From a virus (lineage: Duplodnaviria; Caudoviricetes), in the IMG/VR virus record IMGVR_UViG_3300011444_000003, positions 1-48,648 of that record: DNA of 48,648 nucleotides, one strand, 5' to 3'. The position numbers and the translations under genes were made by a program. The notes below the pieces were generated by a model, which was not told the DNA's origin, made no database searches, and worked only from the letters and a program-made list of their open reading frames with translations. Of this stretch, positions 2,307-48,648 are shown piece after piece; positions within the stretch are counted from its first letter, which is position 1; every line of letters begins with the position of its first letter.

Positions 2307-5300
2307 TTACGGGCACTTCACGAAGCGACCGCTTGCGTCCCGGCACGGTGCGCCCTTGCGAGGGCTCACGGGCGTCGGGGTCGAGGTTGACGAAGTACCG
2401 GCCTTCTCCCGGGCCGCCCGGGCCTTCTCGACCTTGGCGTCGTGGGTGGCCTTGGCCTTGGCCGCCTTGTCGGCAGCCGCCTTGTCCTTCTCGGCCTGGG
2501 ACTTCTCGGGCTTCTTGGGCGGCGGGTTCACCTTGGTCTTGGCCTTGGCGATCCGCTCCCGGATCTTGTCCATCTCCTCGGGCGAGTAGATGCGGGGAGC
2601 GCCGAGGTACCGGCCGATGCTCGTGGCGGCGCTCGGGCTCTGCTCGTACACGTCCTTGCCCCGGAGGGTCTGCTCGCCCATGCGGATCAGGGGGACGCCC
2701 CGGATCGTCTCCTGGAGGTCCTTGACAGGGTCGCTCTTGGGCACGGCGTAGCCGGTGGGGCTGTAGCCGTAGGAGTCGGCGAAGCCGCCCTCGGGGGCGC
2801 CCAGGCCGGCCCGTACGAACGAGCCCACAAACGGGTTCATGGCGTCGGCGATCCCGTTCACCGTGGCCAGGCTGCCGGCGTCGAGCAGGGGGTTCCACGG
2901 CCGGGTGTTGATGCCCTGCCCGTGGTTGCCGATGACGAGGCCCTCGTAGGCGCTCGGCAGGATGCCGCCGAACTGGTCCTGGAGGTACTCGGTGTGCTGC
3001 ACGCCCAACTGCTGGAGCAGGCGGGTGGCCAGGGGGTGATCGGCCGGCATCCGGGCGATCAACTTGACCATGCCCTTCTGCCAGGCGTAGAAGGGGAGGA
3101 CCGAGCGGACGAAGCCCCGCTCCAGCGGCCCGAGGTTGCCGTAGTCGACCATCGCCTCGTACGCCCGGTGCAGGGCGGCCTCTCGGGTGGCGCCGGTGCG
3201 CATGGCCCGGTCCATCACGGCGGTGCGGCTGAACTCGTCGACCACCTCGTTGAGCCGGGCGGTCTTCGCCTTCAGGGTGTCCCGGAGCGCCCGGTTCGAC
3301 TCGTGCAGGGCGATGTCCTTCAGGCCACGCCCCACGACGGTGCTGGCTCCCTCCTCGAAGGAGTTGATCGACTGGCCGACGATCTCGGCCGGCATGTTGC
3401 CGGCCCGCACCTTGCGCCAGGCCGATAGCCAGTCCTGCGGGCGCACGCCCTCCAGGGTGGCCAGGATGACGTTGCCGAACAGGTTGTTGACGTACCACTT
3501 CGGGCTCAGGGTCAGCACGAAGGTCCGCCACGGGCTCGTGAAGCGGCGGATCATGCGGAAGGTCCAGTGGTCGTACTCCTTGCTCATCGAGCGCAGGGCG
3601 GTCTTGACCTCCTTGGGGACGATGTACTGGGCGCCCTGGACGGCCTGGTCCTGGACGCTCTTGGTCGTGACCTCCTTGCCGGTGAGCACCCAGTCCCGCT
3701 CGGGGTCCCAGGCGACCCAGCCGTCGGGGATGGCCTGCCCGGGCTTGATCGGCTTCGTGTAAACGCTCTCGATGTGGTCTACCAGGGCGTTCGTCATCTT
3801 CTCGTGGGCGACCTCGACGGCCGCCGAGGCCAGGGCCTCGATGGAGCGGTCAGCGGCGCCGATCTGCACCAGGCGGCCCGAGCGGGCCTTGCGGGTGCCG
3901 GCCTCGATGGCCGTGTCGACACCCTGGCGGCCGAGGCCGAGGTGGCCGAACAACTGCGCCTGGGCCTTGTCCCAGGAGACGTCCTTCAGGTGGGTCGGCC
4001 GGAAGCCCCGAGCCTCGGCCTGGCGAATGACCTCGCTGAAGGTGTCGGGCACGCCCTCCAGCATCGTGGCGATCGAGCCCGTGGGGTCGGCCTTGGCCTC
4101 GTCCATGAGCCCCTGCCAGGCGTCGTACATCGGGCTCCAGGCGGCGTCGGCCGGCTTGCGCACGGCGTCGTGCCGGCGCACAGTGTCCATCGCCTTGGCA
4201 GCGCCCCGCTCCAAGCGGCTGGCCTGGACCTCGGAGTCGGCCAGGCCGTCCATCGCATCGAGCACCCGCTTGTGGCCCTTCTCCAGGGTGCGGATCATGG
4301 CCTGGTTGTGGGCGATGCGCAGGTCGACGGCGTCGGAGGACTTGCGGGCCTCGCCGTACATCCTGGCCCGCTGCATCGACTCGAAGTCCGTCTCCCAGCG
4401 GTAGCGCTTCGTCTCGACGGGGTGCGGCAACTGCCCGCTGAGCGGGTTGTCCAGCGCCTGGCCGGCCTCGGTCGGCGGGGCGAACATGTCGTCCCAGAAG
4501 GCCCGGACGTGCTCGGGCACGTCGCCGACAGCCGAAGACAGGTAGGCGCCGTAGGTCTGCTCCAGGCTGGCGGCGATCTTGCGGAAGGGGGCGTCGAGGC
4601 CGGCCCGGCCAGCGGCCAGGGTGCCTCGGCTGGTGACGTAGCCCATGAGCCCGCCGACGAAGCCCTCCTCGGCCCGCCGCTTGGCGGCGGTCAGCCCCTT
4701 GTCGAGCAGGCCGGGGTACGCCCGGGCGAGCGCCTGGACGTCAGACTCGGGCAGGATCTGGCGCAGCAGGTGGCCGCCCTCGTGGACCAGGGTGCCGAAG
4801 TTGGCGTCCTGGAACAGGCGGACGATCAGGCGGGCGTCGGGGTTCGAGGGCATGACCATCGCCCCGACCAACTTGTCGCCGAAGGACTGGTGGAGTTCGC
4901 CGACCGAGCCCCGGCGGCTCATGTAGTCGGGCTGGACCATCTCGCCCGGCCAGTCGGTGGCGATCTTCTGCGGGGCGAACTCGCCGTGCGTCACGAGGTA
5001 GGCCGTCTGGCCCCGCAACTCGGTGGTCATGGCCCCGAGCGCCTCCTCGGGGAACATCTGGCTGTGCAGGATGAAGGCGATGTTCTCACCGTGCCGGCTG
5101 AAGGTGTTGCCCGCCTGGGCGTGGCCGAAGAAGTCGTGGACCGCCCGGAACTTGTCGTTGACCATGACCCCGTCGGGGTCGACGGCGGACATGAGCGGGT
5201 TGGGCTCATCGCCGGCCAGGGCCGTGCCCCGGATGTTGAGGTGATTGTTCTTCTGGACGTCCTCCCGCATGGCGGCGTGCGCTACCTCGTCGGCCGACAG

Positions 5301-8300
5301 GGTGTTGCCGGGGACGCCGACCCCGCCGTACTCCTGGCCGGGCGGGACGTACTCCACCTGGAGCCGGGGGCCGTCAGGGGCCTGAGTCATCCACTCGTAC
5401 TGCTGCCGGACGTTGTCGACCAGCACGGCGTAGGAGCGCTCGGCCATCGCTCGCTGCTCGGGCGTCATGGATTCCAGGTCCGGCAACTTCTCGTACTGGG
5501 CGGCGATCTCGGCCGTGCGCTGCGGGAGCACTCGGACGGTCGTGTCAGTGAACTCGGGACGAGGAAGGCCGTGGGCTCGGTTGTAGCGGCCAGCCATCGA
5601 GGAGGTGTACCGAGTCAGCCAGTCGTTCGGCGCCGGCACTGCCCGGGCCTTGTTGGTGGCCAGGCGCTCGGCCGCCAGGGCCTGACTCGTGCCGGCCTCG
5701 GTCATCGAGCGGGCGCCCTCGACAGCCATGCTGCCGCCCGAGGGGCCCAGCAACTTGGGCTTCCACGCTGCTGCGTAGTCGTTCAGCAGGCGGGTGGCCT
5801 CGGCGCCGTCGCCGGCCCGCACAGCCGCACGGATCTTGGGGAGGACGTCGCCCTCCCAGACGTTCAGGCTGTCCAACTTCTGGCCCAGGATCTTGGCGTC
5901 GTCCGCCACCTCGTAGCGGGTCTCGGCCGTCTGCCAGTCGTCGGGCAGCATGGCCAGGCTCTCCCGGTCCTTGGCCGTCATCACGGCGGACTCCACCGGG
6001 CTGGAGACGTCGGTGGCCATGAGCCGGGCGTACTCGCCCTGGAGATCGTTGGGCGGCGTCTCGCCGTGCTTGGCGTAATCCCGGACCTGAGCGGCGACCT
6101 GCTTGCGCTGCGTGCGCACGTCCTGGGCGTAGAGGCTGTGGCTCAACTCCTCGTCCCAGTAGTCCTTCAAGGGGTCCCAGCCGGGGCCGGGGTGCTGGGC
6201 GCCTTCGATGGCCCGGCCGATCTCGTCCATCGCCACGTCGTGGTGGGCCAGGAAGCGGCCCCAGTCCTGGCGGCCCACCTCCTGCTTGGCGTAGACCCAG
6301 AGGAGCGCCTGCACCTCGTGCGGCCGCACGTCCCGGCCCAACTTCTGGGTCAGGTCGGCGGCCTGCTCCCGGATGCCCCGGGCGTACTGGCCGTAGGTGC
6401 CGCCGCCGGCCCAGTCGGTGCCGTCGAGGCCGTACAACTGCGCCATGACACTGTCGAGTGTCACGGCGGTGGAGTCGGCCGGGTTGGCGAGGTTATCTCG
6501 GAAGGACCGCAACTTGGCCAGCGCCTTCGAGCCGTGGTACTCCATGAGCGCCCGGTCGTGCGCCTGGGCGATCTCGGGGAAGTTCGCCAGGAGCGTGTCC
6601 TCTTGGGCGGCCAGGGTCCGGGCCTCCCGGGCGAAGTCGATCCTGCGGGGGACACGGGCCAGTTCCCGGGCCTGCTTCTCGGTGGCCCCGCCCTTCTTGA
6701 AGGCGCTCACCCGGGCCTTCATGTCGAGCATCTCCTCGTGCGCCCGCTGGAAGCCCTGGTAGGCGGCGTGCGCCGGGGTGCCCTCGACGAGCCCGTCGGC
6801 GACGAGCGAGCGGGGCATGTTGGTGGCGGCCAGGCCCTTGTTGACGCCGGTCCACGCCTCGGGCAGGGCGGCGATGTCGGCCGTGTCGGCCTTGCTCAGG
6901 TCCAACTTCCCGGTCAGGATGTCGATGACGTTCTGCTTGGGAGCGGCGATCATGCTCGTCGACTTCGACAGGTCCCGGAGTTCGGGGATCTCGCTGAAGC
7001 GGCGGGCGACCTCGGCCGTCGAGGCGAAGCCCGTCGGCGTCGGGCCCCGGCCCGGGGGCGTCTCCTCGATGCGCTTCATGAGGGCCTTGGCCGCCCGCAT
7101 GGCGTTGGCCTGGCCCTTGCGCCAGTCGGACATGTTGGCGACGGCCATCATCGCCCGGCCCAGGTTCTGCTTGGGGTTCGCCATCACCGAGGTCACGGCC
7201 AGGAGGTCGTAGAAGACGTCGGCCGAGTCCCGGACCGTGCCGTTGAGCATGGTCATCGGCTTGCCCCGGTACAGCCCCTCGACGTAGTCGTGGGAGTCGT
7301 AGTACCAGGACAGGGATTCGCTGACCTGCTGCGGGTTCAACTCGGCCAGGGCTCGGCCCGTGGCTTCCTCGGTGCTCAGGTTCAACACGGTCTGGGCCAG
7401 GTACTGGGCGGACGGGGCCCGGACCCCGGCCTGCACCTCGGCGCTCTTGAAGAACTCCCCGAGCGGGGTGCCCTTCGTGGCGTGCATCCCGTAGTCCCAG
7501 TTCATCCAGATCTGCATGACGCCGTCGGCGGTGCTGGCAGGAAGGCCGACCGCCTTGGCGGCGTCGACTGCCTCGTGCCACGTCCGCAGCAGCGGGCTCT
7601 TGCCCGGGTTGGCCAGGACGTCGTTGTGGTAGATCTTGGCCAGGGCCTGCATGTCGGCGTTGCCCGACAGCGTGAGGTCGCCCTTCGCCGTGATGTCGTA
7701 CAGCGCCTGCTGGCCACGAGCCTCGCCCATGAGGATGGCCAGTTCCCGATCGTCGACCGTGGTGCTGATGTCCCCGGCGATGCGGCCCAGGCCGTTGTCG
7801 TCGGTGTAGGTCCACAGGCCCAGCCGGGCGTCCGGGTGGTACCACGCCTCCAGGTTGTCTCGGACGATGCCCCGCAGGATCTCGTCGGAGTTGGCGGCGA
7901 ACTCCTCGTAGGGCATGTCGATCAGGTCCCGGGCCGTCCCGGTCATCCCGCCCACGGCGTAGCCCGTGTCGCCGAGCGCCGGCTTGCCGGTGGCGACGTC
8001 GAAGGTCGTGCCCCCGTTCAGAGTCAGGTCGGCCTTGATGGCCTCGATGGTGCGGTCGATCTTCAGCACGCCAGGAGGTACCGGCTGGTGCAGTTCGCTG
8101 GTGCGCACGCTGATCTCGTCGAGCCGCTTACGCAGGTCGCCCACGGCCGTCTTCCTCGTCTCGATCACACCGCTCAACTTCTCGGCCTTGGCGGCCAGGG
8201 CCAGGCGCTCGTCCGGCGCCCGGTCCCGCAGGTCGGCGGCCCGCTTCAGGTCACGGCGGGCCTTGTTCAGCCGCTTCAGGTCGGGACCGCTCAGAAGTGG

Positions 8301-10025
8301 AGCATCTGTTTCAAGAACGGCGTCCTCCAGGCCGCTGGCGCCGGCCCGGCTGGACAGCAACTCGTTCAGGCTGGACTTGCGCTGGTCCCGCCAGGCGACC
8401 ACGGCCTGGTCGATGGCCTCGTTTACACGCTGCGCAGCCTCCGGGCCCAGGCGAGCCGTCATCTCGGGCGTGAGCCCCTCGAAGCCCCGGCGAGCCTGGA
8501 GCCGCAGAGCGTTGGCGGCCTCGGCGTTGCCGCCGTCTCGGATGACCGTCTCGAACCAGTCGGTGCCGTCGAGGCGAGCGCCGATCTCCTCGCCGATGAT
8601 GCGGGACACCTCGAAGCGGTCCAACTCAGGCACCGTGCGCAGGATGTCCTCGGCCGCCGTCTTGGCGGCCACGACGGCCGGGGACGCCTGGGCGACCTTC
8701 TGCGCCATGCGCACGTTGCGGCCGAGGTCCTGGGTGACCTTGGCCAGGCGGCGCTTGTTCACGAAGGGGGCCCCGGCGGCCAGGATGCGGTTGACGGGGT
8801 CGGGCAACTTCGAGGTGATCCAGGTGGCCCACGGGGCCGGCGGGCGGGAGGCCAACTGCGTGGCCAGGGTGGCTGCCTCGGGCGCCGGGCTGGCGACCCG
8901 GGCGTCGTGGACGGCGTTGTCGACCGCCGCCATGTGGGCGTCCTTCAGGCCAGGGGTGGTGGCCTCGGCCAGGGTCTTCCCGGCCCGGGTGGCCTCGGTG
9001 GTCGTCAGAGCCCCGGCAGCCTCCTCGGCGGTGGGGGCGATGCCGGCGGCCGTCTTCACGATCTCGGCGGCTCGTGGCACTCGGGTGGCGAGGTCCTCGA
9101 CGAGGCCAGGGCGGACCTTCTCGGCGGCGGCCCGCATGACGTCGCCCACGCTGCGGGCGGCCGTGGCGTAGGGGTGGGCGATGGGGTCGAGGTGCTCGGC
9201 GGCGCCGGCCAGGCGCTCGGCCGTGCCCAGGGCCCCGCCCCGCTCGGCCAACTTGGCGCCTGCGCCAAGGGCGCCCTTGGCGGCGCCAGCAGCGAGGGAG
9301 ACGTTGCCGACGTCCTCGATGGCGGCCGGGATGATGCCCCGCTCGTGCGCCTTCTCGGCGAAGTCCTTGGGGCGGTACTGGTCACCGCCGAGGGCCTCAG
9401 CCACGGCGTCCGAGTAGGAGTCCTTGATCGAGCGGCCCTTGCCGGAGCCGCCGCCCGGGGTGCCCATGCCGCCGGGGCTGACGTTCGGAACGGCGTTCTT
9501 CACTGTGCCAGCGACAGACGAGACGAGCCCCTTGCCCGCCCGGGACCAGACCTGGCCGGCGGGCTGGCCGCCGGGGGCGAGCGAGGACGCCATCTGGCCG
9601 ATGCCGGTCAGGCCCTGGCCGATCTCCTTGAACGCCTGGCCGATGCCCAACTTGAAACCGCCCTTGCCCGAGCCCTGGACGGGCTTGGGGGCGGCCTTCT
9701 TGATGGCGTCTCGGGCATCGCCGGTGATCTTGCCGCTAGCAGTCGCCCCCGCCAGAGCGGACAGCGCCGGGTGACCCGGTGCCGGCGTGCTCGTCTGGCG
9801 GGGAGCGGAGTAGCCCCTCGTGGGGGCGGCCGTGCGCACACCCTTGCGGGAGCGCCCGGAGGAGGCAGCAGCCTCGGCCTGGCGGTCGCTCAGGATCTTC
9901 TGCTGCGTGGTGCGCTCGAACGTGCCGGCGCTGGCGTTGGACGTCGACTTGCGCCCGTCGACCTCGTCCAGCCAGTGGCTGCCCCCGAGGCGTGCGAGCA
10001 CGGGGTTGACCCGAGGAGTCGGCAT
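2307..10025 (-). CDS. Giant (2,572 aa) internal virion/ejection protein of large-polyvalent-protein type
   Basis: Follows the adaptor, nozzle and small ejection genes as in podoviruses. Ala-rich. Contains HEGGH, FRAVHDFFGH and a C-terminal DYGNL...LPFYAW region typical of large podoviral internal proteins. Confidence 0.7.
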   Translation of the reverse strand: MPTPRVNPVLARLGGSHWLDEVDGRKSTSNASAGTFERTTQQKILSDRQAEAAASSGRSRKGVRTAAPTRGYSAPRQTSTPAPGHPALSALAGATASGKITGDARDAIKKAAPKPVQGSGKGGFKLGIGQAFKEIGQGLTGIGQMASSLAPGGQPAGQVWSRAGKGLVSSVAGTVKNAVPNVSPGGMGTPGGGSGKGRSIKDSYSDAVAEALGGDQYRPKDFAEKAHERGIIPAAIEDVGNVSLAAGAAKGALGAGAKLAERGGALGTAERLAGAAEHLDPIAHPYATAARSVGDVMRAAAEKVRPGLVEDLATRVPRAAEIVKTAAGIAPTAEEAAGALTTTEATRAGKTLAEATTPGLKDAHMAAVDNAVHDARVASPAPEAATLATQLASRPPAPWATWITSKLPDPVNRILAAGAPFVNKRRLAKVTQDLGRNVRMAQKVAQASPAVVAAKTAAEDILRTVPELDRFEVSRIIGEEIGARLDGTDWFETVIRDGGNAEAANALRLQARRGFEGLTPEMTARLGPEAAQRVNEAIDQAVVAWRDQRKSSLNELLSSRAGASGLEDAVLETDAPLLSGPDLKRLNKARRDLKRAADLRDRAPDERLALAAKAEKLSGVIETRKTAVGDLRKRLDEISVRTSELHQPVPPGVLKIDRTIEAIKADLTLNGGTTFDVATGKPALGDTGYAVGGMTGTARDLIDMPYEEFAANSDEILRGIVRDNLEAWYHPDARLGLWTYTDDNGLGRIAGDISTTVDDRELAILMGEARGQQALYDITAKGDLTLSGNADMQALAKIYHNDVLANPGKSPLLRTWHEAVDAAKAVGLPASTADGVMQIWMNWDYGMHATKGTPLGEFFKSAEVQAGVRAPSAQYLAQTVLNLSTEEATGRALAELNPQQVSESLSWYYDSHDYVEGLYRGKPMTMLNGTVRDSADVFYDLLAVTSVMANPKQNLGRAMMAVANMSDWRKGQANAMRAAKALMKRIEETPPGRGPTPTGFASTAEVARRFSEIPELRDLSKSTSMIAAPKQNVIDILTGKLDLSKADTADIAALPEAWTGVNKGLAATNMPRSLVADGLVEGTPAHAAYQGFQRAHEEMLDMKARVSAFKKGGATEKQARELARVPRRIDFAREARTLAAQEDTLLANFPEIAQAHDRALMEYHGSKALAKLRSFRDNLANPADSTAVTLDSVMAQLYGLDGTDWAGGGTYGQYARGIREQAADLTQKLGRDVRPHEVQALLWVYAKQEVGRQDWGRFLAHHDVAMDEIGRAIEGAQHPGPGWDPLKDYWDEELSHSLYAQDVRTQRKQVAAQVRDYAKHGETPPNDLQGEYARLMATDVSSPVESAVMTAKDRESLAMLPDDWQTAETRYEVADDAKILGQKLDSLNVWEGDVLPKIRAAVRAGDGAEATRLLNDYAAAWKPKLLGPSGGSMAVEGARSMTEAGTSQALAAERLATNKARAVPAPNDWLTRYTSSMAGRYNRAHGLPRPEFTDTTVRVLPQRTAEIAAQYEKLPDLESMTPEQRAMAERSYAVLVDNVRQQYEWMTQAPDGPRLQVEYVPPGQEYGGVGVPGNTLSADEVAHAAMREDVQKNNHLNIRGTALAGDEPNPLMSAVDPDGVMVNDKFRAVHDFFGHAQAGNTFSRHGENIAFILHSQMFPEEALGAMTTELRGQTAYLVTHGEFAPQKIATDWPGEMVQPDYMSRRGSVGELHQSFGDKLVGAMVMPSNPDARLIVRLFQDANFGTLVHEGGHLLRQILPESDVQALARAYPGLLDKGLTAAKRRAEEGFVGGLMGYVTSRGTLAAGRAGLDAPFRKIAASLEQTYGAYLSSAVGDVPEHVRAFWDDMFAPPTEAGQALDNPLSGQLPHPVETKRYRWETDFESMQRARMYGEARKSSDAVDLRIAHNQAMIRTLEKGHKRVLDAMDGLADSEVQASRLERGAAKAMDTVRRHDAVRKPADAAWSPMYDAWQGLMDEAKADPTGSIATMLEGVPDTFSEVIRQAEARGFRPTHLKDVSWDKAQAQLFGHLGLGRQGVDTAIEAGTRKARSGRLVQIGAADRSIEALASAAVEVAHEKMTNALVDHIESVYTKPIKPGQAIPDGWVAWDPERDWVLTGKEVTTKSVQDQAVQGAQYIVPKEVKTALRSMSKEYDHWTFRMIRRFTSPWRTFVLTLSPKWYVNNLFGNVILATLEGVRPQDWLSAWRKVRAGNMPAEIVGQSINSFEEGASTVVGRGLKDIALHESNRALRDTLKAKTARLNEVVDEFSRTAVMDRAMRTGATREAALHRAYEAMVDYGNLGPLERGFVRSVLPFYAWQKGMVKLIARMPADHPLATRLLQQLGVQHTEYLQDQFGGILPSAYEGLVIGNHGQGINTRPWNPLLDAGSLATVNGIADAMNPFVGSFVRAGLGAPEGGFADSYGYSPTGYAVPKSDPVKDLQETIRGVPLIRMGEQTLRGKDVYEQSPSAATSIGRYLGAPRIYSPEEMDKIRERIAKAKTKVNPPPKKPEKSQAEKDKAAADKAAKAKATHDAKVEKARAAREKAGTSSTSTPTPVSPRKGAPCRDASGRFVKCP

Positions 10026-14666: not shown

Positions 14667-15893
14667 TCAGAAGGTGGGCTCGGCCACCGTGAACTGGACG
14701 TGGGCGTTCCGGGTGACCGCCTCCAGGTTGAAGTAGGACTTGTACCGAGCCTCGACGGCGTCGGAGTTGTCCAGGGCCTTGTACAGGACCCGGCCGTCGT
14801 CCTCGTCCCACTCCCAGTCGAGGCCGATGAACCACTCCATGTCCCGGCTGGTGATGCCAAAGCCCTTCAGGGCGGGGCAGTACCGGTCGACCAGGAGGAC
14901 TCCCTGCGCAACCGCAAGGCCCTTCCAGCCCGAGGTCAGGGTCATCTCCCGGCCCTCGTACCGCTTCTGGGTCTGGAGCAGCGAGGCCAACTTGCGCCGC
15001 TGGACGTGCTCGAAGATGTACAGGTTCGGGGTGGACCCGTCGCCGTCCGTCTCGACCTTCTCCTGACCCTCCTCCAGGAGGACCTCGGAGATGCCGGTCG
15101 AGGTGGACCCCACAGCCAGGCCGTTCCAGACCGGGTTGGAGGCCGCCGTGATGCCGGCGTAGTTCTGGGTGCCCGTGACGAACGGCAGGCCGTTGATCTC
15201 GGTCTCGCCCGAGGCGTAGTTGCCGGCCCGGAACAGGAGGTTGGTGGACACCGTCGAGCCGATGGCGTCGACCGTGATCGTGGTCGGGCTGACCGCCGTG
15301 ATGGTCATGCCGGCCTGGGCGATGGCCCCGGTGGCGACCGTGACGGCGTCGATCTTCTCGCCGACGAAGAAGTGGCGGGTGCCGTTCGACGGGAGGGTCG
15401 TGTTGTCCGGGTAGTTCACCGTGATGACGTTGCCGGCGGGGGCCCCGTTGACTCGCCCGAGGGCGCCGTTCACGAGGACCGAGTTGATCGTCTGGGCCGT
15501 GTTGAAGATCTGGCGGGCCAGGTCGTTCTTCACGTCCTTCTCGGCGCCCCGCAGTTCCGACTCCAGGGCCCGGGTGAAGGCGCCGGTGTCGTTGCGGGTC
15601 AGGTGCTTGGCCGGGCCCGACACCTTGATGGTGTGGTACATGAAGGACAGGTTGTCCCTCGGGCCGATGTACGACTGGCGGTCCGCCGAAGGCAGGGCGC
15701 CCAGTTCGCCTCGGCTACCGGTCGAGGTCGAGCGCTGCGAGTGGACCGACCAGACCGCCTGGCGACCGACGATGTCCTCCCGGTTGAACCGCAGTTCGGT
15801 GAGGACGGGGTTGGAGTTGTTGATCGACTCCCGGAGCCCAGGACCGTAGTTGTCCTTCAGGGCCGCATCGAAGTTGGCGAGGGACTGGGGCAT
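14667..15893 (-). CDS. Major capsid protein
   Basis: 408 aa, downstream of portal and scaffold. MPQSLANFDAALK.NY start, GSRGE.G.LP and INGL motifs, ends at a terminator. Confidence 0.85.
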   Translation of the reverse strand: MPQSLANFDAALKDNYGPGLRESINNSNPVLTELRFNREDIVGRQAVWSVHSQRSTSTGSRGELGALPSADRQSYIGPRDNLSFMYHTIKVSGPAKHLTRNDTGAFTRALESELRGAEKDVKNDLARQIFNTAQTINSVLVNGALGRVNGAPAGNVITVNYPDNTTLPSNGTRHFFVGEKIDAVTVATGAIAQAGMTITAVSPTTITVDAIGSTVSTNLLFRAGNYASGETEINGLPFVTGTQNYAGITAASNPVWNGLAVGSTSTGISEVLLEEGQEKVETDGDGSTPNLYIFEHVQRRKLASLLQTQKRYEGREMTLTSGWKGLAVAQGVLLVDRYCPALKGFGITSRDMEWFIGLDWEWDEDDGRVLYKALDNSDAVEARYKSYFNLEAVTRNAHVQFTVAEPTF

Positions 15894-15905
15894 GCCGCTG
15901 ACCGT

Positions 15906-15930
15906 AGCATCGCCCTTCAGGGGCGATGCT
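15906..15930. promoter_or_regulatory. Perfect 10-bp inverted repeat abutting the capsid gene -10 box
   Basis: AGCATCGCCC-ttcag-GGGCGATGCT. TACGGT is at 15906-15901 on the minus strand. Confidence 0.5.
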
Positions 15931-15936
15931 CAGCGA

Positions 15937-16773
15937 TCAGGACTGCTGCCACCAACCTTCGGCCTTGGCCTTCTCACGCACCTGCCGCATGGCGTCGTCG
16001 AGGCTCTTGGGCCTGGCGGTGGGCTGGGTGACCTCGCCCGGCGACTGGCTGTGGCCGCCGATGTTGCGGGGCAGCGAGTCACGCACGCCCTGCTTGGCCA
16101 GGAGGTACTTCTCGGCCTCGGCCTGCACGATGGAGTTCCAGTCGGCGTGGCCCCGGCGGACGGCGTTGGCGATCACCTCGGGGTCCCACTCGTCCGGGGC
16201 GATGTACGCCTGGGCGAGCGTGATGACGCCCTGCTTGGTCGCATCGTCCTGGACGCCGAGCGCCTGGAGTGCACCGACGGCGGCGTGGGTGGCCTGCTCG
16301 AAGCGCTGGCGCTCCTGGGACTCCTCGAAGGACTCCTCGACCGGGCGCACCCGGCGCTCGATCTCCCGCTCCATCCAGGCTCGCATCTGCTCCTTGGTGA
16401 GTGGCTCGTCGTCGGGCACGTCAGCCAGCGGGTCCGGCTCCTCCTCGGCCTCCCAGTTGAACAGGGACTCGATGACGTCCCGCTCGAAGCCGAGGCCCCG
16501 GAGCGCCTCGACGGCGGCGACCGTCAGGCCCTCCTCGGTGCCCCACGCCTCGACGGCAGCCTGCCGCTGGCGGACGGCCTCGACCCCGCCGTACTCGGCG
16601 AACGGGTCGTCGACCACGGGCGCCGGCAGGCCGGGAGTGCTGGGCTGGCCGGTCGTCGGGCTCGGGGCCTGGAAGATCTCTGCGGGCGGCTCTTGTGAGC
16701 CGGGCTCGGCGGGAGGGGTGTGGCTGTCGAGAACGTCTGCTGGCGTCTCGTACGCCGGGTTGTTCGAGGGCAT
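15937..16773 (-). CDS. Capsid scaffolding protein
   Basis: Acidic and Pro-rich, then helical. Lies between portal and capsid. SD AGGAG. Confidence 0.7.
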   Translation of the reverse strand: MPSNNPAYETPADVLDSHTPPAEPGSQEPPAEIFQAPSPTTGQPSTPGLPAPVVDDPFAEYGGVEAVRQRQAAVEAWGTEEGLTVAAVEALRGLGFERDVIESLFNWEAEEEPDPLADVPDDEPLTKEQMRAWMEREIERRVRPVEESFEESQERQRFEQATHAAVGALQALGVQDDATKQGVITLAQAYIAPDEWDPEVIANAVRRGHADWNSIVQAEAEKYLLAKQGVRDSLPRNIGGHSQSPGEVTQPTARPKSLDDAMRQVREKAKAEGWWQQS

Positions 16774-16814
16774 GTCGTCTCCTGACGGGTGTGGGAATGG
16801 CTACGGGAGGGACC

Positions 16815-18953
16815 TTAGCCGCCCATGCTGGCGGCCTGATTGTCAGCCGGCACGCCGGGGACACGGCCAGGCTGGCCAGTGCCCCCGATGCCGGCGGCGT
16901 TGTAGATCCCCTCGTCAGTGACGGGGGACGGCTGCTGGCCGCTGGCGGACATCAGGGGGTCCGGCGTGGTGCCGGTCATGAAGTCCGTCATGTAGTGGCC
17001 CGAGTTCTGCGCAGCGCCGACGGACCCACGGGCGCCCCGGGCGCCGATGGCCGCCGCAGCGCCGGCCGCATCGGGCTGGCTCGGGCCGAGGCTGGACACG
17101 GGCTGGGGGATGCCGGCCTGGCGCAGCACGAGGCTCTCGTGGACAGCGGCGTGGGCGTCGATGCGAGCCCGGATCGTCTCGGGCAGGCGCTCGTACTCCT
17201 CCGTCTTGCGGAAGCGGTTGATCTGGGCCAGGTGGATGGCGTGGTCGTCGTAGGGGGCGACCTCGCAGTCCTCGCCCTTCAGCAGCAAGGCCAACTCACG
17301 GCGCTGCTTGCGGGTGTCCAGGTCCATGTCCCGGATGATGAAGTCCGTGCCGGGCAGTTCGAGGATGCGCAGCAGGTCCTGGTTGTTCGGGATGACGCCA
17401 CGGGCGTGCAACTCCAGGCCCAACTGGACCCGGGCCGCCTTCGACTTGGGCAGGGCCGACTCGCTCGACACCCGGACGTCGTAGCCACCGTCGAGGTTGG
17501 CGCCCTCGTAGCGGTAGACATCGATGCCCCCGCCCTCCTCGGAGTACACCCGGATGGTGCGCTCCTCGGTCCAGTACTGGCGAGTCAGGCCGAGCACCTG
17601 CTCGCCGACCTCCTTGATGAACTGGGCGAGCATGGTGGCAGTGACGGCCAACTTCGTGTCGTCCGCCTCCTGCAAGGCGAGGATGGCAGCGGCCGGCGTG
17701 CTTGCACCGGCCTGCCCGGCGCTGGCCTCGTTTACACCGGCCCGCTGGCCGAGTTCGCCGTCGGCCCGAGCCATGACGGCCTCCTGCTGCTGCATCCACC
17801 CGGAGTCGGGGGACAGCCAGGTCGGGGGCTGGCCGGTCGGGGCGTAGGGGATGCCCTCGATGCGGGTGGTGACCCGGCTCATGTCGATCGAGCCCGTCGG
17901 GTAGAGCAACTTCGGCACGAGCGTGCGCCGGATGGTCGCCTCCCTGGAGCGGGCGTCGTTGTAGTCCTCCTGCATGGGGATCAGGTCGTCCACCCAGGTG
18001 CGGCCCCGGAGGGTGCCAAGCGGGGGCAGCCAGTTCATCTGGGCGAACGGGAGCCGGCCGTGCTCGAAGGGGAAGTCCCGGCGGGGCTCCAGGATGGTGT
18101 TGCCGGACCAGGTGATGGTCATGCCCTTGGGGGCCGCCCGGCTGGTCAGCATCCACATCTGGTGGACGGCCACGCTGGAGCCGCCCTCGTCCTTCTGGCT
18201 GAGGTGCGCCATCTGGAGCACCTCCTCGACCATGCTGCGGGCCTCGGGCTCGCCGGGGATCTCGACGCCCCACGTCTCCCAGAGCGCCTCACGGCTCATC
18301 ACCGTGGTGCGGATGGCCCAGCGGGCCTTGTCCATGCTGAGCGCCGATGGGTCGACGCTGAGTTCGTTGGCGGGCACGATGTCGTACTCGATGTCGCCCA
18401 TGCGGATCGGCCGGCCGTCCTCGTCCTCGGCCAGGGTGGACCCGGCGTCGGGCTCCCAGTAGATATGGGCGTAGGACCAGCCGAACGTGGCGGGCCAGAA
18501 CAGGAACTCGGTGAGCCAGGCCCTCCAGCCCAGGCGGTCGAACTCGTGCGCCATGATGCGAGTGGCGACCCGGGCGGCGGCCACGTCCTTCTCGTCGTCG
18601 GAGACAGGGCGAGCCTCGGGCAGCGGGGCGCTCTTGGTCAACTTCGAGACGATGCGCTCGACGAGCCCGCCGATCTTGTTGACCGTGATGCGCACGGGGG
18701 CGTTCGGGTCGCTCGCTCGGGGGGCGCTGACCCGGCGTAGAGTCTTGGCCGAGGTGTCCCACGTCAGCCACTGGTGGCCGAGCACGAAGGACAGGTTCAA
18801 CTTCATCTGGTACTCGGGCAGCGGGGTGCGCCCGGCCTTGCGCTTGCGCTCCAGCCAGCCGACTAGTTCCTTCTCGTCCGAAGGGATGATGAACTCGGAC
18901 TTGCCCGAGGACGTGGGCCGACCCCGCATGGAGTCGAGGAAGGACACAGCCAT
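16815..18953 (-). CDS. Portal protein
   Basis: 712 aa. ITVNKI, DLIPMQEDYN and AI..LQE motifs of P22-like portals. Lies between TerL and scaffold. Confidence 0.85.
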   Translation of the reverse strand: MAVSFLDSMRGRPTSSGKSEFIIPSDEKELVGWLERKRKAGRTPLPEYQMKLNLSFVLGHQWLTWDTSAKTLRRVSAPRASDPNAPVRITVNKIGGLVERIVSKLTKSAPLPEARPVSDDEKDVAAARVATRIMAHEFDRLGWRAWLTEFLFWPATFGWSYAHIYWEPDAGSTLAEDEDGRPIRMGDIEYDIVPANELSVDPSALSMDKARWAIRTTVMSREALWETWGVEIPGEPEARSMVEEVLQMAHLSQKDEGGSSVAVHQMWMLTSRAAPKGMTITWSGNTILEPRRDFPFEHGRLPFAQMNWLPPLGTLRGRTWVDDLIPMQEDYNDARSREATIRRTLVPKLLYPTGSIDMSRVTTRIEGIPYAPTGQPPTWLSPDSGWMQQQEAVMARADGELGQRAGVNEASAGQAGASTPAAAILALQEADDTKLAVTATMLAQFIKEVGEQVLGLTRQYWTEERTIRVYSEEGGGIDVYRYEGANLDGGYDVRVSSESALPKSKAARVQLGLELHARGVIPNNQDLLRILELPGTDFIIRDMDLDTRKQRRELALLLKGEDCEVAPYDDHAIHLAQINRFRKTEEYERLPETIRARIDAHAAVHESLVLRQAGIPQPVSSLGPSQPDAAGAAAAIGARGARGSVGAAQNSGHYMTDFMTGTTPDPLMSASGQQPSPVTDEGIYNAAGIGGTGQPGRVPGVPADNQAASMGG

Positions 18954-26100: not shown

Positions 26101-26460
26101 TCAGGCTGGTTCGGAGGGGTCGCTCGGCCAGGGCAGGTGCGTGGCGAGCAGAGCCGACACCTCTCGCCACAGGCGGTAGTCGGCCCACGGCATGAAGTCG
26201 GCATGGACGTTCTCAGCCGCCCACTCCCAGGCGTGCGCCTCGTTGACCAGGCCCTCGCCGACCGGGCGCATTACGTGCCCGAGTTCGTGTAACCCGACTA
26301 TGTACTTCAGCATGGTCGTCGGCCGAGGCGTGTAAACGGTCGGCCATCGCCCGGGGTGGGAGTACGCCTCCTGAACGGTGCCCTCGATCCACTCGATCGT
26401 GACCCGGGTGCCGGCCAGGGACAGGAGGTGGGACCGGGCCCGTGCGGCCGGGAACCTCAC
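26101..26460 (-). CDS. Small zincin-like metallopeptidase
   Basis: LHELGH followed by a downstream NEAHAW Glu. Confidence 0.6.
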   Translation of the reverse strand: MRFPAARARSHLLSLAGTRVTIEWIEGTVQEAYSHPGRWPTVYTPRPTTMLKYIVGLHELGHVMRPVGEGLVNEAHAWEWAAENVHADFMPWADYRLWREVSALLATHLPWPSDPSEPA

Positions 26461-27125
26461 CGGAGGGGCATCGGCGGCTGGCGCCGGCCCATGAGTTGCG
26501 CCATGATCCGGCCGAGTTCCATGAGGTTCATCTCGTCCTCGTCCTGGCTGAACGCCTGGTGCATCGCCGCCTGCTCGATGGCCTTGGCCTGGCTGGAGGC
26601 GACCATCGCAGCGTCGTGGTCAGCGTCGGACGAGCCCGGGCCGAACCCGGTCTGCATCTGCTGCTGGAGCGCTGCCATGTCGCCGGGCATCGACTGCAAC
26701 TCGGGCGGGTAGCCGGCGCCCATCGTGTTGGGCGCTGCGCCGGCCGGGACAGGCGGGACGGGAGCGGGCGGGACCATGCCCTGCGGGCCACCGGGGGCGG
26801 GAGCGCCAGGCGCAGGCGGGCCGCCGGGGCCCGGAGGCATCCCTGGGGGGCCGCCCATGCCAGGGGGCCCGCCCATCATGCCGGGAGGCATGGGGGAGGG
26901 GCTCGGGGGCGGTTCAATCGCCGTAGCGGGGGCTCCCGGGGGCGCACCAGCGCCGGGCGGGGGGCCGGGCAGCGGAGCGTCCATCGCTCCCTGCAACTGC
27001 GGCATCTTGTCGCCGGGCTTGCTCGGGCCCTTCTTCTTCGTGCCCTCCGAGTTCTTGCCGGGGCGGGGCGCCTTGGACCGGCCCCCGGACTTCTTGCTGG
27101 CCTTGCGACGGTCGGACTCGGACAT
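26457..27125 (-). CDS. Low-complexity protein (basic N-terminus, Pro/Gly/Met-rich core)
   Basis: Composition. TAGGGT lies 6 nt before the ATG. Confidence 0.65.
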   Translation of the reverse strand: MSESDRRKASKKSGGRSKAPRPGKNSEGTKKKGPSKPGDKMPQLQGAMDAPLPGPPPGAGAPPGAPATAIEPPPSPSPMPPGMMGGPPGMGGPPGMPPGPGGPPAPGAPAPGGPQGMVPPAPVPPVPAGAAPNTMGAGYPPELQSMPGDMAALQQQMQTGFGPGSSDADHDAAMVASSQAKAIEQAAMHQAFSQDEDEMNLMELGRIMAQLMGRRQPPMPLR

Positions 27126-27672: not shown

Positions 27673-27812
27673 TCGTCATCGTCCTCCTCGGACTCAGGGT
27701 CATCGAACAGGCTATCGGCGGGCCACCAGTCTCCGCACTCGCACTCCAAGAGCGGCCGGTCGCAGTGCTCGCACTTGTGGACGGCAGGTCGGGTGCGATC
27801 CGAGTCCCTCAC
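27669..27812 (-). CDS. 47-aa Cys-rich micro-protein with acidic tail (not in ORF track)
   Basis: My translation: MRDSDRTRPAVHKCEHCDRPLLECECGDWWPADSLFDDPESEEDDDE. GTGA and ATGA overlaps at its two ends. Confidence 0.6.
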   Translation of the reverse strand: MRDSDRTRPAVHKCEHCDRPLLECECGDWWPADSLFDDPESEEDDDE

Positions 27813-28012
27813 GCTGGCACACCCAACAGGTCCAGGCGGATGTCGAGTAGGAGGTCCACCATCTTGTTGGCGTCGACGAGCGAGGAACCAGCACCGACCT
27901 CAGCCAGCGCCTCGTCGACACGGTTCATCGCCCGCTCGACCTGTGGGTCAGCCCAGGTAACGTCGACGAAGACCTCAGAATCGACCTTGGGGCCGAACGG
28001 GGCGAAGCGCAC
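27809..28012 (-). CDS. Hypothetical protein
   Basis: GTG 28012 start just after the pup stop: MRFAPFGPKVDSEV...LLLDIRLDLLGVPA. Confidence 0.55.
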   Translation of the reverse strand: MRFAPFGPKVDSEVFVDVTWADPQVERAMNRVDEALAEVGAGSSLVDANKMVDLLLDIRLDLLGVPA

Positions 28013-28016
28013 GGCT

Positions 28017-28247
28017 TCACTCGCCACTCTTCTGCTGAAACGCCTTGACGAACTCCTCCACCTGGCCGTCAACTCCGATGTCGGCCGCCAGGATGTCGTC
28101 GATCTCGTCCAGGAGATCGTCGATGTCAGCCAGGGTGGCCTCTCGCTTGGCGGCGATGGCGTCCAGATCGGGCTCGACTTCAGCCACGTCGTCCACGGAC
28201 TCGTCTCGCTTGGTAGCCGGTCGTTGCCGCCGGACTTGCTCAGCCAT
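28017..28247 (-). CDS. pup: Prokaryotic ubiquitin-like protein Pup homologue
   Basis: DIDDLLDEIDDIL...EEFVKAFQQKSGE matches the Pup consensus DDLLDEIDDVLEENAEDFVRAYVQKGG(Q/E). Disordered acidic N-terminus. TACGGT 6 nt before the ATG. Confidence 0.88.
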   Translation of the reverse strand: MAEQVRRQRPATKRDESVDDVAEVEPDLDAIAAKREATLADIDDLLDEIDDILAADIGVDGQVEEFVKAFQQKSGE

Positions 28248-28503
28248 GCCATGACCGTACCTCAGACCACATCCACCCGTTCGTCAGGTCCCCGAAGGCT
28301 GAGTCGTCGAGGAAGTTGCCCTTGGCGACGGGCGGGTCCTCCAGGCCGGGGGTCCGAGTCTGCCACTCCCCGTCGGCGTCGAGGTACTGGCACATGACCG
28401 GGCCATTGTCGCCGCAGGTGGGCACGTAGCGCAGCACCCGGGCCATCAGGTCGCCGGTGTGCGGGTTGACGATCCAGCGGACCTTGACCAGCGGCCGGTT
28501 CAT
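28240..28503 (-). CDS. Hypothetical protein
   Basis: Clean ORF, ATGA coupling. Confidence 0.6.
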   Translation of the reverse strand: MNRPLVKVRWIVNPHTGDLMARVLRYVPTCGDNGPVMCQYLDADGEWQTRTPGLEDPPVAKGNFLDDSAFGDLTNGWMWSEVRSWHG

Positions 28504-28901: not shown

Positions 28902-30218
28902 TCAGCCTACCGGCTCGTTCAGGTCGAGCACTATCTCGTCGTACGAGGGCAGGCTGATGCGCATTGTGCCGCCCTCCTTGTGGAGGACGATCAGCCTGTC
29001 TCGGGCGATGTCGACCAGGGCGTCCTCGAAGTACGGGTGCAGCCGCTTGGTGATGTCGGCCTTCAGCACGCCGAACGTGGCCTGGCCGTCGTGGCGCTCC
29101 AGCGAGCGCAGCACCTGGCCCCGGATGCGCTCGGCCACGTCGCCCGCCCGCTCCCTGGCGATGACCTGGGCCTGACTGCGCTGCATTTCCCTTCGGATCT
29201 GGCGGTTCAGGTCGTCCTGGTCGGCGTCATCGACCTCTTGCTGGACCCAGCGACGGACCTGCTGGTTGGTGCGCCACAAGATGCGGGCTCGGTGGTGGTC
29301 GTCGGGGATGGGGTTGAAGCGGCCGTGCAGCAGGGCCATGAGGGCGGCCATGCGCAGCGTGATGAGCGGCTCGTGGGCGTCGAGCGGGGGTAGCGTCTCC
29401 CGGCCGGCGTTCACCGCACGGTGGGCGTCCCTGATCGCCCTGGCCGTGACCGGAGCGATCTTCACCAGGCCGCCCCGGGTCCAGACGGAGGTGTTGAGTT
29501 TCAGCGGGCCAGGCCACTCGACGTCGTCGTGGCTGTCGATCCAGTGGTCATCGTCGGAACTCATGCTGCCGCTGGCCCACACGAAGCGCTGCGGTGTGCC
29601 GCCGTCGATGGATTCGGGGGTGAGCAGGGCGCCCGCCTTCGCCGGCTGGAAGCCGGCGACGAGCCCGATGGAGTAGGAGTTGGCCTCCAGCCGGCGAGAC
29701 GTGGCCTTGGAGGCGTTGGTCTGCCCGAGCGTGCTCCCCGAGAAGGCGGATCGGATGATGACGTCGAGCGTGGTGCCGTCCCGGGAGCCGTAGCGGCGCA
29801 GGATCTCGCCCTCATCGACGTAGACGTAGGCGTTGTGGTGGACCTGGACCTTCTCGCCAGACTCGTCCTTCTCCAGGAACGACTCAACCAGCCCCTCGCC
29901 GGTTCCGATCTGGATGTCGTCCCGGCCGAGCAGGATGTCGGGGGCGGGCACGAGGCGGGCAGCCACCTTCGCTGCGGTGGACTTGCCGCCCCCGGAGCGG
30001 GCAAGGATGGCGGCGAAGTAGTTGAGTGGGGCGGGTCCGCCGACGATGCCGGGGAGGAGAAGGTCACTCGGTGTAAACGCTGCGAGCCGGGCGAGGACGG
30101 CGTGGAGGACGGCGTCCGGGGCCACCACAGCGGAGAAGGAGGCCAACTTGATCCGCTGGAGCGAGGGGGTGTTCCAGAACGAGGTGGGGATGGTCGGGAT
30201 GTGGCTGTCGGTGGGCAC
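28902..30218 (-). CDS. P-loop NTPase, DUF3987/YfjI-like primase-associated helicase with C-terminal wHTH
   Basis: Walker A ARSGGGKS, TGEGL, Walker B YVYVDEG, QP and GG..QRF motifs. Confidence 0.7.
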   Translation of the reverse strand: MPTDSHIPTIPTSFWNTPSLQRIKLASFSAVVAPDAVLHAVLARLAAFTPSDLLLPGIVGGPAPLNYFAAILARSGGGKSTAAKVAARLVPAPDILLGRDDIQIGTGEGLVESFLEKDESGEKVQVHHNAYVYVDEGEILRRYGSRDGTTLDVIIRSAFSGSTLGQTNASKATSRRLEANSYSIGLVAGFQPAKAGALLTPESIDGGTPQRFVWASGSMSSDDDHWIDSHDDVEWPGPLKLNTSVWTRGGLVKIAPVTARAIRDAHRAVNAGRETLPPLDAHEPLITLRMAALMALLHGRFNPIPDDHHRARILWRTNQQVRRWVQQEVDDADQDDLNRQIRREMQRSQAQVIARERAGDVAERIRGQVLRSLERHDGQATFGVLKADITKRLHPYFEDALVDIARDRLIVLHKEGGTMRISLPSYDEIVLDLNEPVG

Positions 30219-47402: not shown

Positions 47403-48648
47403 GCCAATGTCCCTTCACCAGGTCCTGCCAGGTCGCCCCGAGCAGGAGTTCCTTCACGTCCTTCTGCTGCCGGTTGGCCTCGGCGACCACCTCGTCGATG
47501 GTGTCCTCGGCCGTCAGGGCCCAGACGTTGACCGGGCGGGTCTGCCCCGAGCGCCAGAGGCGCCCGACAGCCTGCCGGTTCACGTCGTAGACCCAGTCCA
47601 GGTCAACGAAGATCAGGTTACGGGCATTCCGCTGAAGACCGTCGACCCCGACACCCAGGGCGGCGATGGTGCCCACAATGGCGCTGGCTTTCCCCTCGGC
47701 GAAGCGGTCCTTGTTGCGGTCTCGGTCTTCCTGCTTCAGCCGGCCCGTGTAAACGACCGAGCCCGGGATCTTGGCGGCGATGCGGTGCGCTGTCTCCTGG
47801 TTGGCGGTGAGCACCACGGCGGGCTCGTCGAGGTCGCCGACCAGTTCCACGGCCGCCTTCGCCTTCGAGGTGAGGCCGTCCTCGGGCTGGACGTCGGCCC
47901 AGCCGCTGACCAACTGGCGCAACCGTCCCTGGCGGGCGATGGCGAGGTCGGCCGAGATGAAGCCCTCGTCGTTGTCGGCCTCGACCCAGCCGTGCTCGGC
48001 CATCTGGTTGTAGACCTTGCGCTCGGCCGGCGCCAACGCCACGGCCAGGTTCGTCCAGATCGGCTCACTGCCCAACTCGGGCATGAGGTCCTCGATCGGC
48101 CGGTAGAGCAGCAGCCCGAGCATCTCCTGCTGGAGGATCTTCTCGTGGCCCGGCCGGATGGCGCCGACGATGCGCACGGGGAAACGGGTCGCCTTGCCGA
48201 AGGTGGTCGACTTCACGTAGAAGTGCTCCTCGGCCCACGGCCAGTACGCCGGCCAGCGGTGGCGGTCGATGAGGTGGAGCAGGGCCCAGAGTTCCTCGGC
48301 CCGGTTCATGACGGGGGTGCCGGTGACGGCCAGGAACGTGGTCGAGGCGGTCGACAGGCGGGACACGGCCCGGGAGATCTGGGAGGTGCGGTTCTTCAGC
48401 CGGTGCGCCTCGTCGAACACGAGGTTGCGAATCTTGGCCTTCAGCAGCCAGTCCACGTCACGGCGTACGGCCTCGTAGTTGGTGATGAGCGCCCCGCCAC
48501 GCTGAAGCCAAGAGTCAACAGCGGTCGTGCGGCGTTTGGCGCTGTCGGAGCCCCTGTACCAGGCCAGCGGCCAGTCGGGGACGGCGTCCTGGGCCTCGTG
48601 GGCCCAGTGGTGGAGGACGTTGGCCGGCGTCACGATCAGCGTGCGGCC
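47350..48648 (-). CDS. SNF2/SF2 helicase, C-terminal part (starts at 255 across the junction)
   Basis: NYE, DEAH, TGTP..N, GVGVDGLQ and QA.GR..R.GQ motifs. Confidence 0.9.
   Translation of the reverse strand, partial: GRTLIVTPANVLHHWAHEAQDAVPDWPLAWYRGSDSAKRRTTAVDSWLQRGGALITNYEAVRRDVDWLLKAKIRNLVFDEAHRLKNRTSQISRAVSRLSTASTTFLAVTGTPVMNRAEELWALLHLIDRHRWPAYWPWAEEHFYVKSTTFGKATRFPVRIVGAIRPGHEKILQQEMLGLLLYRPIEDLMPELGSEPIWTNLAVALAPAERKVYNQMAEHGWVEADNDEGFISADLAIARQGRLRQLVSGWADVQPEDGLTSKAKAAVELVGDLDEPAVVLTANQETAHRIAAKIPGSVVYTGRLKQEDRDRNKDRFAEGKASAIVGTIAALGVGVDGLQRNARNLIFVDLDWVYDVNRQAVGRLWRSGQTRPVNVWALTAEDTIDEVVAEANRQQKDVKELLLGATWQDLVKGHWHEGCGVQETGSDHPRGV
48526..48648. repeat. Direct terminal repeat, right copy
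   Basis: Identical to 1-123. Confidence 0.95.

Follow-up and report, generated by a model that had tools for sequence, protein, structure and literature searches.

An orphan Pup with an extended hinge in a complete actinobacterial phage genome

Introduction

The nearest known system to the gene described here is actinobacterial Pup, the prokaryotic ubiquitin-like protein (PF05639, TIGR03687; PDB 3M9D, 3M91, 7PX9, 7OXY and 7OY3). In that system, according to an excerpt of PMC3511204, PafA couples the terminal Glu of Pup to lysines, and Dop carries out both deamidation and depupylation. The excerpted text of PMC8755798 describes Mpa as binding a 30-residue helix of Pup and threading its disordered N-terminus. 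The contact network of Dop with Pup is more extensive than that of PafA, as stated in sections of PMC8599861, and passages of PMC5358908 describe free Pup as unstable or rarely seen. Phage adaptation to the Pup-proteasome system is called untested in an extract of a 2026 review (PMC13696103).

Here we analyse a small phage gene whose product resembles actinobacterial Pup in its size class, its disordered N-terminus, its DDLLDEIDD helix, a second helix with a Phe and a QK-x-G-E tail. Unlike actinobacterial Pup, it is borne by a phage, it stands without arc, dop, prcBA and pafA, and its hinge between the two helices counts 9 residues rather than 3; at 76 aa it also exceeds the 60-70 residues stated for Pup in the excerpt of PMC3511204. 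A literature search of mostly openly accessible papers, main texts only, returned no published description of a phage or plasmid Pup.

Results

A complete phage genome with pup and no match to its enzymes

The window, that is the whole 48,648-nt stretch analysed, is one entire contig of about 69% GC from a soil or sediment actinobacterial phage. A terminal repeat of 123 nt (positions 1-123 and again 48526-48648) marks it as a closed complete genome of 48,525 bp, and its completeness class is 100%. Comparison with Pfam and PHROGs identified a P22-like portal and a major capsid protein (together at 14667-18953, minus strand), PolA, WhiB and a helicase. Lysine makes up 2.9% of the residues in the phage proteins, a share for which GC bias could account.

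The genome gave no match to the Pup-ligase family (PF03136) or to the proteasome family (PF00227), and tblastn with ARC, Dop, PrcB and PafA across the complete genome likewise found nothing. The preliminary description had stated from inspection that dop, prcBA and pafA are absent, and both kinds of search agree with it.

Several other features of the genome deserve mention. The Pfam and PHROGs scans (54 and 59 ORFs) brought up no recognisable large terminase, and PF03237 had no match. The gene at 2307-10025 (minus strand) encodes a protein of 2,572 aa with no Pfam match and with only a PHROG of unknown function; it is 62% identical over 1,370 aa to a homologue in a related phage (IMG/VR record G006, see below), and is likely a virion or ejection protein. 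Between 31000 and 37300 the sign of the GC skew flips over an island of small plus-strand genes that includes a SprT-like protein, and none of eight ORFs queried from this island matched the recovered part of G006. Finally, a 222-aa protein encoded at 26457-27125 (minus strand), four genes downstream of pup, has a basic N-terminus followed by a long Pro/Gly/Met-rich low-complexity middle, a layout that is conserved in G006 (locus L006).

Identification of the pup gene

The Pup-family ORF of 76 aa lies at 28247-28017 on the minus strand, a strand that the preliminary description left unstated; its translation is identical to the one given there. The Pfam Pup model (PF05639), which that description had suggested as a check, matched the ORF with 38 bits (E 3.2e-9), above its cut-off of 27. 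All six matches in a PDB search up to E 1 were Pup chains (best E 1.3e-4), and their alignments display both a gap of six residues and a Ser in place of Gly at the third-last position. With TIGR03687, an equivalog model of the C-terminal 33 residues, the phage Pup scored below the cut-off (20.5 vs 41.45). The allele ending in GGE also fell below it (23.5), and the insertion-free Pup of L006 scored above it (53.9); it is therefore the insertion, and not the Ser, that distinguishes the phage Pup. By its sequence, the protein is a member of the Pfam family that stands outside both the canonical locus and the TIGR equivalog. An ORF of 147 aa that overlaps pup in the +1 frame, or a frameshift fusion with it, was rejected as chance, since 41 of 160 other pup genes also have that frame open.

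The pup gene belongs to the phage

Record G006 (loci L005 and L006) is a distant relative of this phage: 33 of 52 queried ORFs found a match there at 30-80% identity, with their order kept. Its pup, 38% identical to the one described here, stands in the same gene block, after a shared primase-like gene, and the encoded Pup has canonical spacing with no insertion. The block is headed in both phages by a primase/polymerase-associated gene (28902-30218, minus strand; PHROGs and synteny). The 67-aa ORF that starts 5 nt past the pup stop (27809-28012, minus strand) has a homologue of 41% identity that follows pup in G006; Atlas searches with this ORF gave no more than leads, all under 0.8. The 87-aa ORF upstream (28240-28503, minus strand), whose end shares 8 nt with the beginning of pup, is absent from that place in G006. 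The whole pup gene is also spanned by single contigs from the probable source run and from two other studies. A chimeric host fragment, raised earlier as a way in which the locus could mislead, is ruled out by these contigs and by the retention of pup in the same block of G006.

The hexamer TACGGT stands 6 nt before the pup ATG (28254-28259, minus strand), exactly as first described, and probably serves as the -10 box of a leaderless start. Across the genome, TAnnnT occurs 6-7 nt before ATG at 17 sites, compared with 0-8 in 20 shuffles; all 17 are on the minus strand and mostly precede real starts, such as those of the portal and capsid genes. G006 has 13 such sites, and the same start signal precedes pup in another phage (L002) and in Nocardioidaceae. 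This distribution suggests that genes of the phage may be transcribed one by one as leaderless messages. Since the signal is common to genes of this phage, and since G006 keeps pup in synteny, we regard pup as a true phage gene.

Starts with this signal include those at 18953, 15893, 14550, 14052, 10025, 22356, 27125, 27412 and 28247 (all minus strand); the hexamer is mostly TA[ACG]GGT or TAGGCT and is present even within the packed structural block. The GC3 of pup is 0.78, compared with 0.86-0.96 in 10 other genes of the phage. In the sole RNA run listed (X22) only short host-like pieces were seen and no contig of the phage pup, a result that says nothing either way about its expression.

Clues to the host point in more than one direction. 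The nearest Pups to the phage Pup are mostly from Acidimicrobiia, and among 80 GTDB loci the leaderless start signal coincides with pup genes of the Nocardioidaceae type in 11 of 12 cases. A search with the phage capsid yielded one weak match in 401 genomes of the class Acidimicrobiia and none in 401 genomes of the family Nocardioidaceae.

Six additional residues in the hinge

In the Dop-Pup structure, as given in an excerpt of PMC8599861, the 71-residue Pup of A. cellulolyticus has helix 1 at D44-V53 and helix 2 at N57-S64. In an alignment of the phage Pup to it, anchored at the helix-1 motif and at the C-terminal end, the hinge grows from 3 residues to 9. On this mapping, helix 1 of the PafA/Dop-binding region (DDLLDEIDDI) corresponds to residues 43-52 (28092-28121), the hinge of 3 residues plus a 6-residue insertion to residues 53-61 (28065-28091), and helix 2 to residues 62-69 (28041-28064), all on the minus strand. 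Measured from the L-D-E-I-D motif to the C-terminal end, the spacing is 31 in the phage Pup and 25 in 160 of 160 control Pups, which bears out the earlier observation of a roughly 6-residue insertion between the helices.

The controls were the best 80 Pups each from GTDB and metagenomes, in scans that covered 6 of 64 and 5 of 64 parts of the respective collections. All of them (80/80 and 80/80) have a spacing of 25 and a KGG[QE] end, so that no long-hinge copy occurs among either best 80, and dop, pafA or prcB lies near pup at 79/80 GTDB and 78/80 metagenome loci.

A Pup profile search brought up long-hinge relatives. Among the best 120 of its 1,282 matches, 106 were canonical, 13 were long-hinge clusters (two with +5, two with +6 and nine with +7 residues) and one was a read-through form. 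The long-hinge relatives match PF05639 at 34-59 bits, and all 13 clusters keep L-D-E-I-D, Phe at -11, an aromatic residue at -7, Gln at -5 and GG[EQ], counts that are partly built in, the search patterns having used helix 1 and the tail. They end in Glu in 8/8 clusters from outside Streptomyces and in Gln in 5/5 Streptomyces clusters. The read-through form (P0074, Logan, 90 aa) is Pup-like with 24 residues past GGQ, its ligation site masked.

Genomic contexts could be read for the lineage of the window and its relative L001, for an unrelated phage record of 49% GC (L215), and for two Streptomyces linear plasmids. In L215 the long-hinge pup comes after an endolysin gene, and no ligase was found in that record. 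The plasmids, from Streptomyces anthocyanicus, are NZ_CP109229.1 (L210:15001-16277) and NZ_CP109572.1 (L221:6001-7277), and this plasmid copy is the only one read for the Streptomyces long-hinge type. There, a RimK-like ATP-grasp gene that is annotated as hypothetical lies directly downstream of pup, at a distance of 146 nt; pup also precedes a tyrosine recombinase, and no PafA was found on either plasmid. The plasmid protein, annotated in RefSeq as a second Pup (WP_331752764.1), is like the phage Pup an orphan on a mobile element with an insertion in the same hinge. It differs in its +7 insertion, its GGQ end, another N-terminus and the RimK-like neighbour, and, unlike the phage Pup, it passes TIGR03687 (a close homologue, P0068, scores 45 bits). 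Five other long-hinge clusters (P0017, P0046, P0050, P0051 and P0053) were not found in IMG/VR, and samples of 63 and 401 genomes, searched with no positive control, did not yield the Streptomyces long-hinge type.

The C-terminal end

The preliminary description was headed by a non-canonical KSGE end, and this feature did not survive comparison with relatives. In the two nearest 90% clusters, 11 of 13 sequences end in KGGE; the pair with KSGE consists of the phage protein and P0009, encoded on a contig of 48,666 nt, and both probably derive from the same genome. The Ser codon lies at 28026-28028 (minus strand), and the Ser base at 28028 was seen only in X1, a possible source run, among eight sequencing runs examined. 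Long pieces from five other studies (X2, X5, X6, X7 and X11) carry the Gly base; X7 and X11 probably duplicate the data of L001 and P0003 and are not independent support for Gly, X4 was left out of this count as a 41-nt piece with 5 differences, and X22 does not cover the codon. Ser74, real in this record, is thus a private one-base variant of one strain and no feature of the family, and is likely incidental. As a designed feature, the SGE end is ruled out. The motif GG[QE] is represented by SGE in the record and by GGE in its relatives, and the terminal Glu, the residue that is ligated, is present.

Compared with L001, the gene has four coding base changes that lead to three amino-acid changes, with no purely silent codon, and these changes are too few for purifying selection to be shown. 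In a divergent allele the changes cluster, among those listed, in residues 8-39.

A ready-to-ligate Glu had also been proposed as a phage adaptation. Glu is not enriched in viral Pups: viral types end in E or Q in the ratio 12/10 (a count that precedes L224, which adds one Q), compared with 43/37 in genomes (p = 1.0).

UBact is a small bacterial tag whose tail ends in [TS]G[EQ], which resembles the SGE of the phage Pup. No family match to UBact was obtained with Pfam (E 0.01) or NCBIfam (E 1), libraries that may hold no UBact model. Set against UBact, the helix-1 motif of the phage protein is that of Pup, and its relatives end in GGE.

Orphan Pups in other viral records

The survey of IMG/VR phages that the preliminary description had suggested turned up orphan Pups in 33 other records, making up, with the phage Pup, about 23 sequence types. 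None of the 33 records, many of which are fragments, had a Pup-ligase match, and proteasome matches were absent from all 31 records tested. Like the gene studied here, these phage Pups (L002-L037, L224) stand alone, among replication and packaging modules and with no ligase or proteasome genes; neighbours at 13 sampled loci include terminases, portals, prohead proteases, Thy1, RNR and RecA. Most viral types have canonical spacing and a KGG[QE] tail, unlike the lineage of the window and L215, which are long-hinged.

Among the first 21 viral types, 5 deviate in spacing or tail, compared with 0 of 80 genome Pups (Fisher p 2.6e-4), in counts that are not phylogenetically independent. The odd forms encoded at L008:4884-5159, L033:2-154, L030:4765-4953 and L036:374-676 comprise AQGQ with a spacing of +1, QSGQ, AGGE, and EGGE with -1. 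Viral copies explore changes of tail and spacing that are absent from the 160 control Pups. Three queries against 50,697 GenBank phage records gave no Pup match, and PHROGs gave none. In a quick Pup tree (67 columns), too short for counting origins, the viral Pups stand on long branches.

Predicted structure and docking on PafA

AF2 predicts for the phage Pup a coil at residues 1-27, a helix at 28-56, a break, and a helix at 59-75, with a mean pLDDT of 72.5. The predicted disordered N-terminus (28167-28247, minus strand) corresponds to the segment that is threaded in host Pup, and the long predicted helix that follows it (28080-28166, minus strand) matches the 30-residue helix bound by Mpa/ARC, as both are described in the excerpt of PMC8755798. 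In this model the insertion does not touch the approximately 30-residue Mpa-binding helix.

Complex modelling of residues 30-76 with PafA from Acidimicrobiales as a stand-in gave a score of 0.81, compared with 0.01 for the best control; the mark applied is reached by 116 of 157 solved pairs and 2 of 215 mismatched pairs. Contact agreement between runs was at least 92% and the pLDDT of the partners at least 74. The modelled contacts involve residues 39-53 and 56-76, that is both helices and the tail. The phage Pup is accordingly predicted to dock on PafA, as the preliminary description had proposed to model; since this is a textbook pair, the pass may be a memory of solved PafA-Pup structures. 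The model does not separate a substrate from an inhibitor.

Discussion

We tentatively propose, at slightly less than an even chance, that the orphan Pup is a working tag that the phage supplies to host PafA and to the Mpa/ARC proteasome ATPase. The gene would be expressed during infection from its leaderless start, and host PafA would ligate the terminal Glu to lysines with no need for Dop. The six extra hinge residues would loop out and leave the protein usable as a tag; the additional tag would then increase the pupylation and proteasomal turnover of host proteins, with amino-acid recycling or the removal of host factors as the possible benefit. Extra tag could raise turnover in this way given the scarcity of free Pup in host cells, and the loop-out fits the variation of hinge length among +5, +6 and +7. 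Because the hinge spacing is invariant in the control Pups, however, the six additional residues may well impair ligation. The kept Glu or Gln, a reactive end, favours a working tag.

The preliminary description opposed hijacking of pupylation to a decoy, and this is the correct pair. As a decoy, the chief rival to a working tag and in our view unlikely, it would attach to PafA, to Dop and/or to the coiled coil of Mpa, its long hinge would make it a poor substrate for ligation or turnover, and it would jam host pupylation so that phage proteins are protected. All readable long-hinge contexts (two unrelated phage lineages and two plasmids) lie off the chromosomal operon, viral types deviate where genome Pups do not, Ser74 is tolerated in at least one genome, and the Mpa-binding helix is predicted to be unaffected by the insertion, all of which would suit a decoy. 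The terminal Glu/Gln and the helix-2 residues are nevertheless kept in 13/13 long-hinge clusters, and a pure Mpa decoy is disfavoured because it would have no need of the tail; in addition, the Pup of L006 is canonical in spacing at the very same site, as are most viral types in both spacing and tail. The tag might instead be irreversible, with ligation by PafA and a long hinge that blocks removal by Dop, committing tagged host proteins to destruction. The wider contacts of Dop with Pup, in the sections of PMC8599861 cited above, would allow such a difference between the two enzymes, and a Glu end, needing no Dop, is found in every long-hinge cluster from outside Streptomyces. We consider this improbable, since the five Streptomyces clusters end in Gln and so need Dop before ligation, and since viral Pups overall have no enrichment of Glu.

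Less probable again is that pup is a neutral passenger, captured from a host long ago and drifting under relaxed selection, with the insertion and the Ser as signs of decay. The long branches of viral Pups, the lower GC3 of the gene and the empty search of GenBank phages agree with such a history. Yet the gene is intact in every allele seen, has persisted through the divergence of two lineages whose proteins share 30-80% identity, bears the phage's own start signal and recurs in some 23 viral sequence types with unrelated neighbours, and the changes of the divergent allele, among those listed, are clustered. Least probable of all, and by our estimate very unlikely, is that long-hinge Pups are coupled by an amide ligase other than PafA, for example the RimK-like ATP-grasp protein encoded next to pup on both Streptomyces plasmids, where no PafA was found. 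The two plasmid loci are near-identical and count as a single observation, made in an IS-rich region; the phage genome gave no RimK match, and the modelled complex with PafA fits well.

Apart from the working tag in the phage, the long-hinge Pups may form a dedicated subfamily, borne by phages and plasmids of actinobacteria, in which 5-7 extra residues uncouple the host enzymes, such that PafA and Mpa are still engaged and ligation or removal is altered. This is possible, with perhaps one chance in three or slightly better. As host hinge spacing is invariant, the subfamily probes a structural rule of Pup recognition, and nature provides the controls: GGE and SGE alleles, a sister phage with no insertion, and hinges of +5 and +7. 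A long-hinge Pup could also yield a Dop-resistant tag, or an inhibitor of PafA or Mpa, for labelling tools based on pupylation. A Pup encoded by the phage itself, in a gene of 76 residues, is the most direct handle on the question of how phages and pupylation meet. If long-hinge Pups do modulate the host enzymes, they would be the first viral effector against bacterial pupylation, and pupylation would be a battleground in phage infection.
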